Origin: Harriotta raleighana
Taxonomy: Eukaryota
Assembly: GCA_050575255.1 (NCBI GenBank)
Contig: JBNZDD010013567.1
Location: forward strand, 652,842 to 716,841
Length of the DNA: 64,000 nt
Direction of reading: 5' to 3'
Part shown: positions 745 through 54,581 of the stretch, in pieces
Layout: every line of letters starts with the position of its first letter
Position numbering within the stretch: position 1 is the first letter of the stretch
The notes under the pieces: generated by a model
The model's database searches: none
Seen by the model: the letters and a program-made list of their open reading frames with translations, nothing else
Told to the model about the DNA's origin: nothing
Made by a program: the position numbers and the translations under genes

Positions 745-850
745 AGTGCTACAGTACTACTTCTGGAGCTGAAAGATGAACGCTGCTGGTTAAGGAAGTT
801 TCCAGTAACTATGAATGAAGAGTTGGCCAATTGTTCCATTTACTGTGAAG
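745..850 (+). CDS. ZFPM1: ZFPM1/FOG1 internal coding exon (PR-like domain, SATVLLLELKDERCWLRKFPVTMNEELANCSIYCE)
   Basis: Not in the ORF track (too short); read by eye. Acceptor ttttctttaaactaacag|, donor GAAG|gtagg, 106 bp, phase 0 to 1. The peptide resembles the FOG1 PR-domain segment (recalled human LLLVDEACWLRTLPQALTEAEANTEIH) and splices in frame to exon 6519. Confidence 0.85.
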
Positions 851-6518: not shown

Positions 6519-6764
6519 GTGACCAGATCTGGTGTAAAACGACAAAGCCTATCGCAGAGGGGGAGAACTTAACTGCAATTATTGTTGCTCCGGATCAGAC
6601 CAACAAGTCTCCGAAGTCAAACCACAACGTTAAAACTGAGCTGGTGGAACCCGCAGAGATCTCTGACCCTTCAGCCATGTACCCGGCCACTTTACATTCC
6701 GACATCCAGCTTCTCCCTCAGCAGGCTGGGATGGCTGCCATTTTAGCAACTGCTGTTGTCAACA
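6519..6764 (+). CDS. ZFPM1: ZFPM1 coding exon (end of PR domain, DQIWCKTTKPI...IQLLPQQAGMAAILATAVVN)
   Basis: Acceptor ccctgtgcag|GT, donor AACA|gtaagt, 246 bp, phase 1-1. Contains the FOG-family IQLLPQQAGMAxILATAVxN motif. Confidence 0.95.
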
Positions 6765-7693: not shown

Positions 7694-7918
7694 AGGACAT
7701 CTTTCCTTGTAAATCCTGCGGGATCTGGTACAGAAGCGAACGGAATCTGCAAGCTCACCTGATGTATTACTGTGCGAGCCGGCAAAAACCCTTATCTATT
7801 CCCACAGAGGAGAAACCCAAGGAACCGTCACCGCACGAACGCATCTGCCCTTTCCCTCAGTGCAACAAAAGTTGCCCCAGCGCCAGCTCTCTAGAAATTC
7901 ACATGCGTAGCCATAGCG
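7694..7918 (+). CDS. ZFPM1: ZFPM1 coding exon: CCHC finger 1 and C2H2 finger 2
   Basis: Acceptor ttgtttttcag|, donor AGCG|gtaag, 225 bp. Encodes [26 protein letters not shown] and [24 protein letters not shown]; the latter is FOG1-type. Confidence 0.97.
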
Positions 7919-9941: not shown

Positions 9942-10408
9942 CTATAACTCTTCTGATATTAATTACACTCTAGTAAATGTTTCCATTAATCAGCAAATTC
10001 AGCTTTGAAATCATACAAAAAGTATGAAAATAATCACTAGCTGAAACCTTGTAGTCGATTTAGCTACATCGAATTGGTAAACAACAAGGGTAAATAGAAC
10101 CTTTTTCTTNTACTTTTCTCGTCTAGTGTTTTGGCTTCAACCACTCACTCTTCCTGGCAACATTTTCCAGTTATTAATTACCCTCTGGCTAAAGCAAAAC
10201 TTCCTGGTATTTGTCCTGAATTCATATTTGGTTTTTAAACCTATAACTCTTCTGATATTAATTACACTCTAGTAAATGTTTCCATTAATCAGCAAATTCA
10301 GCTTTGAAATCATACAAAAAGTATGAAAATAATCACTAGCTGAAACCTTGTAGTCGATTTAGCTACATCGAATTGGTAAACAACAAGGGTAAATAGAACC
10401 TTTTTCTT
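9942..10408 (+). repeat. 168-bp exact duplicate (9942-10109 = 10241-10408), probable assembly artefact
   Basis: Copy 1 ends at N 10110; another N lies at 9845. Confidence 0.85.
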
Positions 10409-12149: not shown

Positions 12150-12245
12150 GTGAAAGGCCTTTTGTGTGTCTAATCTGTCTGTCAGCGTTTACAACAAAGG
12201 CAAACTGTGAACGACACCTGAAAGTACACACGGACTCACTGAATG
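12150..12245 (+). CDS. ZFPM1: ZFPM1 coding exon: C2H2 finger 3
   Basis: Acceptor tgtgctcag|GT, donor AATG|gtaat, 96 bp. ERPFVCLICLSAFTTKANCERHLKVHTD is FOG1-diagnostic. Confidence 0.97.
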
Positions 12246-15781: not shown

Positions 15782-15910
15782 GTATTTGTCAGGACTGTGG
15801 ATTTATCGCAACCACAAGAGAAATCCTGTACACTCATCTGGTTACTAATCACATGGCCTGCCAGCCAGGTGCAAAGGGTGACTTATACTCCTCTGTCCCT
15901 CCTTTATCAG
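15782..15910 (+). CDS. ZFPM1: ZFPM1 coding exon: C2H2 finger 4
   Basis: Acceptor gtttgacacag|GT, donor TCAG|gtaag, 129 bp. ICQDCGFIATTREILYTHLVTNHMACQPG matches FOG1 finger 4. Confidence 0.95.
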
Positions 15911-16307
15911 GTAAGAAAGAGAAGCACACTGGACACAACTTCTGCAGTCATTTTAGGATCATCTTGCACTGTGGCATGTGTCTTGTATACATACTGCATT
16001 TTCTGTGCAAACCTGTTTTTATCAAATTTTAGAATTTTTTTTTGCAAATTTTAGAAATAATTTCCTCAAAACGGTATTGCATCAAGATTCTGTATCAATC
16101 AAACACATGGCACCAGATGAAACTTGAAGCTAAGGGAAAGCTTCTGAGCTTGTAAGCATATCACCAGTTCTGTTCGTAGAGTGAATGTAACTAACAAGAA
16201 ATACTGTATAAGAGACAGATGCGTGTGTGCTTCATGTTCATTGCAAAATACGGATGAACAATTTTAGTATCAACATTTAGTTTTTTTTTAATCTCTGTTC
16301 ATCTCAG

Positions 16308-18823
16308 GTTTGAAGGTCGCAGATCCTTCCGCAAGCCTGAAGTGTTGCAAGTGCGAGTTCGTTGGTGATTCCGAATCAAGCTTGCAGCAGCACAGCTCAC
16401 TGCATCTCGTACAAGGTGCACTCCAGTGCAGTCAATGCCACAGGCATTTGAGAAGCGCAACTGAGCTAGCCAAGCACATGGAGGGTCACCAAGCTAGTGA
16501 ATCTCAGCATGGTACAGAGGAAGCAAAGGGCACAGATGAGGGGGGCACTCCAGTTTCCAGAAAAGAAGATCCCGAGGAAGCCATTCGAGCTGTGAAAATC
16601 AAAGAGGAGCCTCAGAGAGGTGTAAATTCCCAATCTGAGAGTGAGCCTGAGAAGACCGTGGAAGGTCTAGCAAATCCAACCACTGATAATTCCTCCAGCA
16701 CCTCGTCCCCGAGGAACACGCCTGTGGTCAAAGTGAAGTCCGAGCGCTCAAGCCCGATACCGGCCTCCAGTCCAGTCCATTATGGGGCAGCCTCGGTGAT
16801 GCCGGAAGGAACCGTGTTAATACCGTACATGTTCAATCACGAAACTTCCACATTTCCACAAGCTTCAGAAATCCTAGCCAAAATGTCGGAGTTGGTTCAC
16901 AGCAGACTGAAGCAAGGGGTGAATAATTACCCGCTGCTTTACGCGAGTGCCCCCATTCAAAAAGGAGCAACCTGCTACGAGTGTGACATTACATTCAATA
17001 ACGTCAACAACTACTTGGTACACAAACGTCTGTATTGTTCCAGCAGGCACCAGCAGCCAGACAACACCACTGCTACCAAACACTCAGTGCCACCCAACAA
17101 TGCTGACCAGGAGTCTCCAAGTCCTGCACCTCTCGTCGTCGAAAATCAGCAGGCTTCATCCTCCCAGACTGATCCAGAAGCGGATCTGCAAACAGCAAAC
17201 GTAGATGTTAAACCGCCGGAAATCAAAATGGAGGAGAATGTCACAAAGGACACCTCGTCTGAAGGAGACAGCCTCAGTAGAGTCAGTGAAGGTAGCCAGA
17301 GTCCAAGCAACTCCCTCGACGACTTGGAAGACGACCCTAATAGGACTGTGTGTGAGGCTTGCAATATAAGGTTCACCCGACATGAAACCTATGTGGTGCA
17401 CAAGCGCTTCTACTGTGCTTCCAGACACGACCCTCCTCTTCGAAGGCCAAACAGTGGGAAAGTGCCATTCCTCCAGCAAAACGTACGCACTCGCAAGCGT
17501 AGAAAGTTGTACGAGATCCACGGCACCGGACATCAGCCCCTGCCCCCACCTCCTGCAAACGAAGTGTCCGTCCATAGCCCTTCAGCAGCCGTGCTTCAAA
17601 GAAGTGGGCTGCCCAACAATGCAGAAGCTTTAAAAATAAAGCAAGAGTCTTTGCCGCTCTCTTCAAAGTCTACTGATGCTCTCTCTATGTTAACTCGATC
17701 TAGTGCAACTTCATCACCGGGCTCCAGTTCGGATGTAGATGGACCCATTGATCTCAGCAAAAAATCCCGCATTCAGGAAGAACCTGGAAGAGTCCACACT
17801 CCACCAATAGTTCCAGCCCCCAATATTTTGACAGACTATCATGAATGCACCTCCTGCAAAATCAGTTTCAACAATGTCGAAAACTACCTTGCCCATAAGA
17901 AGTACTATTGTCCCGCTACAGCTCTTCAGCACAGTAACGTGGAACATCTCGCCAGAGGAAAGACACAAGCCACTGCTTCAGTGAAACCCAGAAAGAGCAA
18001 CAAGACAGATGTTGGAGACCCTCCTATGCAATCCGAGGAGTTGAACAAAAAAAATGTAAATGCCAAATGTGTTCCAGAAAGTCCACACTTGGCCCATCCG
18101 TATATTACTCCAAATAATTCTCCAGGAATATATCACTACAGTGCAGACGTTTTGCAAGATAGACCTCAGTTGTCCCCTCACATTAAGCCCTTCCCAGCAC
18201 CCCAACGTACTCCAGTAGTTTGCCCTTACTGTCCACTTAATGGACCTATTGAAGGAGACCTTATTGAACATTTTAAACTTGTTCATGGCTTGCTGTTGAC
18301 CAAACAGACTGCAATTGGGCATCCGGCCGAGAGCAATACGATGGACACTCCATCACAAGGCAAACACCAGACAAACAATATTTCTGAAAGCAGCCCTCAC
18401 AATTCTAGAATTCCTGCCTCGTCTCTTCAGCCAGGCACTCAGATTCAGAAGAACATCTTGAATGCCAAAGATCAAAGAGAATCTGTCTCATCCCAGTCAT
18501 CGAGTGAAAACCCGTTGCAGAACATCTCTCTTAAACCTATACTGACTGCCTCCCCTAAAGTTATGAAAATCTCCCCTGGGACTGATGTTTCCACAGATCC
18601 AGGCTCCAAATCACCCATCCCACCCGTTAATATGGACAAATTGCCCATCTCACCTGTTAATGTAGACAAATCTGTTCAGACAGCAATGTCTCTCCCAAGC
18701 CCTGTGCAGAATGGAAACCACAGATTCTGTCGCTTGTGCAACATCAAATTCAGCAGTTTGTCTACATTTATAGCTCACAAGAAGTATTACTGTTCCTCTC
18801 ACACTTCTGAACATGTTAAATGA
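16308..18823 (+). CDS. ZFPM1: ZFPM1 terminal coding exon: two extra C2H2 fingers, four CCHC fingers, one C2H2 finger, NLS and CtBP-binding PIDLS
   Basis: Acceptor ctctgttcatctcag|GT leads into the 837-aa ORF. It has TCYECDITFNNVNNYLVHKRLYC, VCEACNIRFTRHETYVVHKRFYC, RTRKRRK, PIDLS (17744-17758), ECTSCKISFNNVENYLAHKKYYC, CPYCPLNGPIEGDLIEHFKLVH and FCRLCNIKFSSLSTFIAHKKYYC, then SEHVK-stop. The six exons total 3318 bp, an intact frame. Confidence 0.98.
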
Positions 18824-52069: not shown

Positions 52070-52483
52070 TCAAACAACACTAAAGTACATCTCCTCTTCC
52101 ACGGTAAGTTTAGTGTCTTCCTTGTTGCCTTTGCTCTCTTGAGCCGGCGCCTTGGCTTGCTCCTTGCCATTGACTTCGGGGCTTCCGTTGATCGCCTCCC
52201 GTACCACACTGTAATTCACTGGGTTTCTGTATAAGGGACGGCTTGGGGTATCATTGTGGCGGCAGTGGCACAGTTTTTTGAAAGCAGATCTGAATTTCTG
52301 AGACATTAGGTTATAAATGACTGGATTGATCGCGCTGTTGGCATACACACAAAGTCTGCAGAATAAAAGGAACCAAGCATTGTCGTATTGTTTGTCTATG
52401 AAGGAGTTGACCACGACTATTGTCCTGTATGGCATCCAGAGCAAAGCAAAGAGAACAACCACCACAGCCAGCATCTTAGTAAC
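52070..52483 (-). CDS. TRHR2: TRHR2 coding exon 2 (TM6, TM7, C-tail; 137 aa plus stop)
   Basis: Acceptor tattttctccacag|GTT. Encodes [46 protein letters not shown] and a CxC palmitoylation motif (LCHC). Phase 0 join gives a 408-aa protein. Confidence 0.95.
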
Positions 52484-52602
52484 CTGTGGAGAAAATACAG
52501 ATGTTGTTTTAGTTTTTGAAAGTTGCCCAAAATTAAATTCAGTTTCCTCCTGAAATATATTGCCATGCACGTTTGACAACATATATTTCCTTCAAGTGGA
52601 GT

Positions 52603-52917
52603 GGAGCTCCTGTAGCTCAGTGGTTAGAGCACTCGCCTTACAAGCATGAGACCCGTGTTCAAGTCCAGGCAGGTCAGGGCAAAACCTTGGCCAAGTTTCC
52701 TTATTCCACACGCCTAATAATAAGCCATACAAAAAAAAACACAATGATAAAATTGATCATTTCAATCCATGGCTGTTTGTGGGACACTGCTGGGTGCAAT
52801 TGGCTGCCGCACATTGCCCACAAATATGCAATCAATTCACTTTGCAATGTATTCTGTGAAGCGATTTGAGATGTCAATAAGAAAAGTGCTACATCAAATG
52901 CAAGGATTATTATTATT
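52603..52917 (+). mobile_element. Full-length tRNA-derived SINE in the TRHR2 intron
   Basis: tRNA-like head with A box (tagctcagtggttagagc) and B box (gtgttcaagtcc); Deu-like body (gtttgtgggacactgctgggtgcaattggctgccgc); L2-like tail ending aaatgcaaggattattattatt. Confidence 0.9.
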
Positions 52918-53768
52918 TAAGGCAAATTTGTGTGGAATCTTAATTGTGATACCTTTACAGACTTTCGAAATATGCACTCACTGTTTTGAGGTTTTAATGT
53001 TTGTAGTAGGACAGTTTCCTATTTGTACAGCATTACTAAATATATATCTTCAATCAATGATGGGTTAGATCAGTAATTCATAACATAAAACATCAAGGAT
53101 TCACCCTGTTGTTTGTGCTAATTTCTCACTGGGCTCCAAGTGGGTCTTATAAGCACCCAATCGCTGAGAACCAGGAGATGGTGTATAATATTCTCTAAAC
53201 AAACAAAACAGAATGTTCTATTATCTTTCCTTCTGATTTTGCACCACTAAACGTTGAAGAAAGCGAGTTTTATTTCTGCTCAGTACTCTACAAGGCTGCA
53301 GCTCCAAACCATTAGGGAAATCAAATGAAATGGAAACCATGTGTCTGGTGGCATATTTAACTCTGCTATTTGAATCCATTATCTTAATAATTTGAAAAAC
53401 GTGCATCAGTTTATTTGGAAAATATAACCTGTTCTGTAATTTACCGTACAACCTGACAATCTGTATAATTGTGTGTTACTCTGGAGGGACTATTCCAGAT
53501 AAAGGCATTTTCCATTGTGTGGCTGACATGTATTTATGGGCGTCTGTTCCTCAGCATGGTAATGGGTTTCCATGTACAGTATGTCAGACATCCAACTGAA
53601 CAAAATAAATGCCGCTTTTTTACTTTTTTCCATATTTTGACTATTGTGGTTATTTCCTTCATCTTGTTTCCAGGCTATTTATTGGTATCATTTAGCTCCA
53701 AGAAAAAAATCGCAAACAAATCACAAACCTTATCTTTTGATCCGCTTCCCAGAGAACCACCACATTAC

Positions 53769-54581
53769 CTGTTTTCTGGATGAGATGGCCCCTTTGCTTA
53801 TCCGGCAGGAGACAGAGCTACCAGGAGCCCCCGAGCTCTTGAGTTCTGCCTCAGACCGCTCCTTCCAACTCTTAACTCCCATCTCGATTCTAGTTGGAAT
53901 AGGACTGAGGAAGAGCACACGGCCGATCAATCCATATAGCACTGTGGCCACTACCAGAGGAATGACGTAGAAGATGGTGAAATCGATGAAATAGATGGGC
54001 AAGTATAGGTTCCGAGAGACCTTGTAACCACACTCGGCATGCTGCCTGCTGTTGATGTTGATGTCCACCAGAAAGAACCAGACCATGCAATAGAAAGAGG
54101 TGATGATCCAGAGGAAGGCGAGGATTTTCTTAGCTCTGGTTATGGTGCACATAGAATGGGCTTTCATCGGGTGGCAGATGGCGATGTATCTTTCCACGGT
54201 GAATGCTGTGATGGAGCAGGATGACACATTGATGCCCAAGTACTGCAGGTATGTGATGGCCAGGCAGCCTGCATGTCCATAGATCCACGACTCGGTCAGA
54301 CTGTCAGAGACATTGGGAAGCCCTGCGGCCACGAGGACCATCAGATCAGCCACCGCCAGACTGACGAGATAGCAATTAGTCGGGGTTCTCATGTGTCTTG
54401 TGGTCAGAACCACCAGCACCACCATCATATTCCCGATAATACCAATGCCACAGATGGTCAACACAAGCATCACTGAAACACTTTTGTATTCGATGGACTT
54501 GTAGATCAAACCAGTGTCGGCAGAAATTGGGTTTGCCAGGGAACTGTTTATGGGGGTTAGAAACCTACTCACGTTCTCCAT
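53769..54581 (-). CDS. TRHR2: Thyrotropin-releasing hormone receptor 2, coding exon 1 (N-terminus to ICL3, 271 codons)
   Basis: Strong Kozak context aaacgATGG. Class A GPCR motifs GN (TM1), LAVAD (TM2) and ERY; TRHR-family [31 protein letters not shown] and [14 protein letters not shown]. Donor at SSRKQ|gtaatg is the conserved TRHR intron position. Subtype 2 is called from [16 protein letters not shown] and adjacency to ZFPM1. Confidence 0.93.

Follow-up and report, generated by a model that had tools for sequence, protein, structure and literature searches.

An intact eleven-finger FOG1 gene in the chimaera Harriotta raleighana with two additional C2H2 fingers that are probable homologues of FOG2 fingers 3 and 4

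The window, a stretch of 64,000 nucleotides from the chimaera Harriotta raleighana, contains on its + strand an intact ZFPM1/FOG1 gene with 11 zinc fingers (Table 1). The + strand frame at positions 16292 to 18823 is open over 843 codons, and six exons, all with AG/GT ends, could be joined into a single frame of 1,105 residues without stop codons. This model covers the exons in the window, the 5′ exons being located outside it. The 11 fingers of the joined model follow each other in the order CCHC, five C2H2, three CCHC, C2H2, and CCHC. The finger-4 exon has 5 codons fewer than its counterpart in Callorhinchus milii, in the linker after the finger. The introns contain two pairs of 100% identical direct copies (1-480 and 2390-2869, 9942-10109 and 10241-10408) with N near each of them, which are probably assembly duplications.

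Table 1. Positions in the window of the FOG1 exons, fingers and CtBP-type motif and of the neighbouring TRH-receptor gene
Feature	Position	Strand	Remark
FOG1 internal coding exon, part of PR-like region	745..850	+	AG/GT ends, open frame in joined model
FOG1 coding exon, terminates ...AAILATAVVN	6519..6764	+	joined model
FOG1 exon with fingers 1 and 2, phase-1 donor	7694..7918	+	joined model
Finger 1 (CCHC)	7708-7773	+	within exon 7694..7918
Finger 2 (C2H2)	7846-7914	+	within exon 7694..7918
FOG1 finger-3 exon, skippable, phase 1-1	12150..12245	+	absent from 120/120 FOG2 proteins
FOG1 finger 3	12167-12229	+	within exon 12150..12245
FOG1 finger-4 exon, skippable, phase 1-1	15782..15910	+	without FOG2 counterpart
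FOG1 finger 4	15787-15852	+	within exon 15782..15910
FOG1 terminal coding exon	16308..18823	+	acceptor 16308 matches FOG2 terminal-exon acceptor
Extra finger A (C2H2)	16343..16405	+	C-x2-C-x12-H-x3-H; probable homologue of FOG2 finger 3
Extra finger B (C2H2)	16427..16489	+	position and pair score; probable homologue of FOG2 finger 4
Canonical FOG1 finger 5 (CCHC)	16973..17038	+	pattern
Canonical finger 6 (CCHC)	17351..17416	+	pattern
PIDLS CtBP-type motif, between canonical fingers 6 and 7	17744..17758	+	sequence; position as described in PMC4146578
Canonical finger 7 (CCHC)	17846..17911	+	pattern
Canonical finger 8 (C2H2)	18221..18286	+	FOG2 has just a short C-L-Y-P-G trace there
Canonical finger 9 (CCHC)	18728..18793	+	pattern
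TRH-receptor gene, two exons (first 54581-53769, second from about 52483)	52070-54581	-	tail to tail with FOG1

Membership in the FOG/ZFPM family was evident from the five CCHC fingers, a score of 111 bits for Pfam PF25445, and the PXDLS CtBP motif, which is present as PIDLS. In a whole-protein tree of 21 proteins and 944 columns, the gene grouped with FOG1 and not with FOG2 (support 100/100), and the FOG1-type fingers 3, 4, and 8 reached 82, 65, and 68 bits, respectively, on profiles of bony-vertebrate FOG1. The terminal exon is 91% identical to C. milii ZFPM1, and the C. milii FOG1 orthologue matches the solved FOG1 PR domain 2mpl. One other FOG gene was found in the genome, which is FOG2 and is located on a separate contig. 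Its paralogous exon shows 68% identity to the finger-1/2 exon of FOG1.

The original prediction stated that the terminal exon opens with two C2H2 fingers which are additional to counterparts of all nine canonical FOG1 fingers. Both parts of this statement were borne out, as the exact C-x2-C-x12-H-x3-H spacing was present twice, with LKC at position 16337, and the joined model contained the nine canonical fingers besides. The two additional fingers, here termed A and B, are connected by the 7-residue linker LVQGALQ. A structure predicted from a 30-row alignment showed two beta-beta-alpha units with a pLDDT of about 79 to 83 in the fingers and a mean of 71.4; a fold predicted without an alignment had a pLDDT of 55.8 and was discarded. 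Spacing and modelled fold thus characterize A and B as classical C2H2 fingers. All matches in a Foldseek search with the A/B model were C2H2 arrays, none of them at an E value of 0.001, and a PDB sequence search with A/B returned generic C2H2 proteins only.

Fingers A and B form the first element of the FOG1 terminal exon after a phase-1 acceptor, as does the finger 3/4 pair in FOG2. Within the Harriotta genome, the terminal exons of both paralogues begin with cag/GTTTGAA at a phase-1 acceptor and with the residues G-L-K-V, and the FOG2 terminal exon opens with the same finger pair. The A/B pair was present in all 120 FOG2 proteins retrieved, a sample that favours pair-carrying proteins because the pair-bearing region served as the query, and FOG1 finger 3 or 4 was present in none of them. 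The 4.4-kb intron that separates the finger-2 exon of FOG2 from its terminal exon contains no N and showed no trace of fingers 3 and 4 (best tblastn E value of 0.86, with 50 kb searched). The head of the exon also has a counterpart to a known modification site: positions 16308 to 16321 align with the SUMO site K324 of mouse FOG2, which lies at the terminal-exon head between fingers 2 and 3 (PMC3511347). In the window, the lysine is conserved and the consensus glutamate is not, while the FOG2 of the same genome keeps the glutamate.

On a profile built from 62 distinct FOG2 finger-3/4 pairs, the A/B pair of the window scored 40.5 bits and those of other chondrichthyans scored 39.6 to 53.9 bits. 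The background of 1,063 unrelated pairs with identical spacing had a mean of 16.6 and a maximum of 38.1 bits, so that the margin is thin for the window pair and wider in most sharks. FOG1 fingers 3 and 4 reached between 0.7 and 7.1 bits on this profile. Scored alone, finger A obtained 21 bits on the FOG2 finger-3 profile and 28 bits on the bony FOG1 finger-A profile, each value being equalled by 0.2% of 1,673 unrelated fingers, whereas the 14 bits of finger B were equalled by 7.7% of these fingers and do not distinguish it from the background. The human FOG2 stretch quoted in the original prediction proved identical to the corresponding stretch of the mammalian FOG2 protein P0162. These results agree with the proposal that A and B are homologues of FOG2 fingers 3 and 4, with which they share the exon head, the phase, the linker length, and a pair score above background. 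They likewise agree with the proposal that fingers 3 and 4 of FOG1, which are encoded by different exons and scored 3.5 bits in the window, are not homologous to fingers 3 and 4 of FOG2.

Per-finger trees, which had been suggested as a check, gave weak results. A tree of 83 single fingers over 29 columns had no resolution, but a tree of pairs grouped FOG1 A/B, FOG2 3/4, and both invertebrate pairs described below with a support of 79/89. AU tests yielded p values of 0.26 and 0.09; the first was run without the two invertebrate pairs, which fall within the group in the best tree, and the rival grouping of FOG1 3/4 with FOG2 3/4 was not rejected (p of 0.09). The homology case is built on exon position, linker length, and pair score in combination, and the trees add little to it. 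A TRH-receptor gene is located 3′ of both paralogues, at a distance of about 33 kb in the case of FOG1 and of about 1.07 Mb in the case of FOG2, an arrangement that fits a block duplication. The genome contains three TRH-receptor paralogues, one of them on the FOG2 contig.

FOG proteins of amphioxus, acorn worm, lamprey, hagfish, and arthropods were obtained as outgroups from a profile search of 1.84 billion representatives. At the position of A/B, amphioxus XP_035679450.1 and acorn worm XP_070575941.1 each contain two tandem fingers connected by a linker of 7 residues. The acorn-worm pair scored 42.9 bits on the FOG2 pair profile, a value reached by none of the 1,063 background pairs, and the amphioxus pair scored 34.3 bits (9 of 1,063 background pairs as high). 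Judged from these sequences, A and B are likely to predate the FOG1/FOG2 duplication. The amphioxus pair was outscored on the bony-FOG1 finger-A profile by a finger of an arthropod Ush and by another amphioxus finger, which makes deep orthology of single fingers ambiguous. Amphioxus FOG contains 12 pattern-matching fingers, some of which are absent from vertebrates. The finger directly after finger 2 has the A-F-x-x-K-A core of finger 3 and resembles it by eye, and finger 3 probably predates the FOG1/FOG2 split as well; the score at the finger-3 position was 16 bits, equalled by 18.9% of the background. A finger-4 counterpart was found neither in amphioxus or acorn-worm FOG nor in the other outgroup proteins examined. 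Thus, the proposal that the pre-duplication FOG possessed both pairs is supported with respect to A/B, but the match for finger 3 is weak and finger 4 occurs in no outgroup.

The lamprey and hagfish FOGs examined (P0256, P0260, P0271, P0274, P0395) keep CCHC fingers and have no N-terminal C2H2 block, with no intact fingers 2 to 4 or A/B. Since this whole block is absent, they are uninformative as an outgroup. One lamprey protein shows a possible decayed trace of fingers, by eye only. Among the 120 matches listed in one homologue search, which were mostly from jawed vertebrates, there was no tunicate or echinoderm FOG. The invertebrate FOG P0367 has at residues 662 to 711 a C-terminal tandem pair that resembles FOG1 fingers 2 and 3, which are N-terminal in vertebrates; this could reflect finger shuffling or generic similarity.

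The outgroup data leave room for a different history, which we regard as a real possibility while not favouring it: A and B would be ancestral, but finger 4, and perhaps finger 3, would have been gained by FOG1 after the duplication, for instance as a finger-A copy or through the insertion of a phase 1-1 exon. In that case, FOG2 would have lost at most one exon, and a reciprocal loss of two pairs would not have occurred. Such a gain is consistent with the lack of a finger-4 counterpart in amphioxus and acorn worm, the background-level score of the amphioxus finger at the finger-3 position, the symmetric phase 1 of both the finger-3 and the finger-4 exon, and the C-x2-C-G-F start shared by finger 4 and the bony finger A, which are adjacent in the single-finger tree with a support of only 34/47. 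The A-F-x-x-K-A core directly after finger 2 in amphioxus and the tandem pair of P0367 argue against it.

We then considered the distribution of A and B in a census of 178 FOG1 proteins, comprising that of the window and 177 proteins from homologue searches. Both fingers were intact in 15 proteins, one finger in 139, and none in 19, and 5 proteins were unscorable. The 15 two-finger proteins were that of the window and 14 of the 15 chondrichthyan proteins (13 of 14 species), the exception being the stingray Hemitrygon, whose finger B lacks one cysteine. Finger B was intact in none of the 157 scorable bony-vertebrate proteins. In the 138 one-finger proteins of bony vertebrates, from bony fishes, coelacanth, lungfish, amphibians, reptiles, and marsupials, the finger present was always A. 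In the FOG1 of Latimeria (P0017), an H-x-x-F-Q stretch just after A aligns by eye with FOG2 finger B and is possibly a decayed remnant of B. The 19 proteins without A or B were from 14 named birds, a marmot, and a wallaby carrying a three-residue deletion, together with one turtle model that looks mis-spliced and two fragments; the census took in no palaeognath bird and no named monotreme FOG1. Further placental FOG1 proteins without an intact A were found in hyaena, langurs, aardvark, bat, and peccary. A broken copy of A, consisting of LKCGPWG followed by the helix of A, is left in hyaena isoform X1 and in the bat model, and the common placental form appears to be spliced into the middle of finger A via a downstream acceptor.

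The census contradicts the assumption that mammalian FOG1 lost a pair in one event, as B is gone from all sampled bony vertebrates and A is mostly kept. By parsimony, B would have been lost in the bony-vertebrate stem and A separately in birds and in placentals. The 11-finger set claimed for this gene is indeed present, but it is general in cartilaginous fishes and not special to Harriotta. FOG1 proteins with 11 fingers are already contained in databases.

Among 14 chondrichthyan FOG1 proteins, the mean pairwise identity was 0.85 for A, 0.73 for B, 0.84 for finger 4, and 0.88 to 1.0 for the other fingers, compared to 0.60 for the 60 residues after B. A and B are thus among the least conserved fingers of these proteins and under weak constraint; the equivalent fingers of 11 chondrichthyan FOG2 proteins had values of 0.93 and 0.88. 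A hand count against one relative, for which 40 of 61 differences were shown, yielded a pN/pS of 0.39 in A/B (8 replacement changes, 5 silent) and of 0.33 in the flank (14 replacement changes, 13 silent). It is unlikely, in our estimation, that A and B of chondrichthyan FOG1 are functionless relics that survived through slow genome evolution. The pN/pS of A/B in this single pairwise count, which is not below that of the flank, the cysteine loss in B of Hemitrygon, and the repeated losses in other lineages would fit such relics. Against this, all eight zinc ligands of A/B are kept in 13 of 14 chondrichthyan species (chimaeras, sharks, and rays) while flank identity falls to 0.60, none of the eight replacements in A/B hits a zinc ligand, and A is kept in 138 bony-vertebrate proteins. 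Unchanged ligands together with replacements elsewhere suggest that the scaffold of A/B is kept while the surface drifts.

The A/B pairs of FOG1 have a net charge of -1 to -5 and no arginine at helix positions -1, 2, 3, and 6; in the window, the net charge is -1 and the base-contact positions are S,S,S,Q and S,T,E,K. A TGEKP-type linker is absent from A/B, which do not classify as a DNA-reading array of the Kruppel type. As the fingers of FOG1 have been reported to recruit proteins and to lack DNA binding (PMC4146578), charge, contact residues, and linker point to a protein-contact surface. From the sequence features, we therefore lean towards A and B being a putative accessory protein-contact surface of this GATA cofactor and not a DNA reader.

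Entry of A and B into chondrichthyan FOG1 from FOG2 by gene conversion or exon transfer, to which the matching exon heads could be attributed, is very improbable in view of an identity of just 34 to 40% to FOG2 over the stretch, the placement of FOG1 A/B in a group of their own that is not nested in chondrichthyan FOG2 (95/91), the occurrence of A across bony-vertebrate FOG1, and the location of the paralogues on different contigs.

The predicted junction between positions 15910 and 16308 was analyzed with contigs of a related organism from 4 of 8 listed runs, the RNA status of which is presumed. Of the AG sites listed for positions 15930 to 16700, acceptor 16308 has the best pyrimidine tract (0.79). 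In runs X1 and X4, which come from two studies, contigs stopped at this acceptor with loose ends corresponding to the finger-4 exon end, and the joins coincided with the predicted splice sites. The junction is thus supported by presumed RNA of a relative, with both fingers covered. In run X3, one contig extended into the intron. One contig of run X5 (depth of 4.2) joined the acceptor directly to the finger-1/2 exon end, its loose end matching positions 7888 to 7917 in 29 of 30 letters by eye, and represents a form that skips fingers 3 and 4. In the contigs of the relative, the finger-3 and finger-4 exons are represented through loose ends only. The six C. milii database models, which without exception contain A and B, include forms without finger 3, without finger 4, and without either; two teleost FOG1 models (P0114, P0441) skip both the finger-3 and the finger-4 exon. 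The notion that A and B are an annotation artefact upstream of the true acceptor is refuted for the main form by the contigs of two studies that splice at 16308 and cover both fingers, and the pyrimidine tract and the six C. milii models also speak against it, even though placental FOG1 uses a downstream acceptor inside A and in-frame AG sites downstream in the window make a minor form of this kind possible.

Gene anatomy, the matching exon position in both paralogues, and the species distribution were observed directly. We have good confidence in the reading that this is an intact 11-finger FOG1 whose fingers A and B are homologues of FOG2 fingers 3 and 4, likely an ancestral pair that was kept by FOG2 and lost stepwise in bony-vertebrate FOG1. 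After the duplication, the skippable finger-3 and finger-4 exons would have been lost from FOG2, in which A/B would have stayed under strong constraint, whereas FOG1 would have kept fingers 3 and 4 and relaxed A/B. The decay of B would have taken place in the stem of the bony vertebrates and, a second time, in one stingray, and that of A in birds and in placentals. As the exons for fingers 3 and 4 are cassettes of symmetric phase 1 and can be skipped in frame, FOG2 could have lost them without a frameshift, and the fully skipped form has the finger order of FOG2, namely, 1, 2, A, B. A cassette-skipping route to FOG2, based on one contig and the database models, is plausible. It is conceivable, though rather doubtful, that cartilaginous-fish FOG1 makes both FOG1- and FOG2-type arrays by cassette use, that FOG2 fixed the skipped form, and that A/B carry a FOG2-type partner contact which placental FOG1 lost. 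If true, the human genes FOG1 and FOG2 would descend from what were once two splice forms.

In the development of blood, heart, and gonads, FOG1 and FOG2 act as core GATA cofactors. The numbering of their fingers implies a matching, but fingers 3 and 4 of each would be different modules, and results obtained on one pair would then not be transferable to the other. The proposed homology would also account for the 'putative tenth finger' described for FOG1 of fish and frogs and for the short helix remnant in placental FOG1, and the natural series of 11, 10, and 9 fingers along with the skipped forms offers a handle on what FOG2 fingers 3 and 4 do. It refines the history of a known gene family and introduces no new mechanism. 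With respect to novelty, our literature search, which did not extend to the original cloning papers, found no report of an eleventh FOG1 finger or of a homology to FOG2 fingers 3 and 4, whereas a 'putative tenth zinc finger', most likely finger A, has already been published for FOG1 of fish and frogs (Mimoto and Christian 2012, PMC3250481). The available passages of that article do not link the tenth finger to FOG2, and those of PMC7761934, PMC7891773, and PMC13102351 contain nothing on finger homology.

Mammalian ZFPM1/FOG1 has nine fingers (PMC4146578). The window gene is its orthologue (100/100) and shares with it these nine fingers, the PIDLS motif, and the PR-region exons; it differs by two intact C2H2 fingers at the terminal-exon head, where placental FOG1 has a broken A and no B. 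Fish and frog FOG1 have one extra finger, most likely finger A, and the window gene has B as a second. ZFPM2/FOG2 resembles the window gene in its fingers 3 and 4, which are the probable homologues of A/B and share with them the exon head and the phase, but is without FOG1 fingers 3, 4, and 8, and its A/B equivalents are better conserved. Eight fingers were present in 88 of the 120 FOG2 proteins, the other 32 being without fingers at an end; 31 of the 120 show a six-finger pattern, some of them being fragments. Many FOG2 models (P0123, P0126, P0129, P0146-P0148, and others, from sharks, turtles, frogs, and macaque) skip the finger-1/2 exon in frame, which removes the first GATA-type finger. 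The FOG proteins of amphioxus and acorn worm have, like the window gene, an A/B-like pair that follows the N-terminal fingers and precedes the central CCHC fingers; unlike the window gene, amphioxus FOG contains extra non-vertebrate fingers and no counterpart of finger 4.
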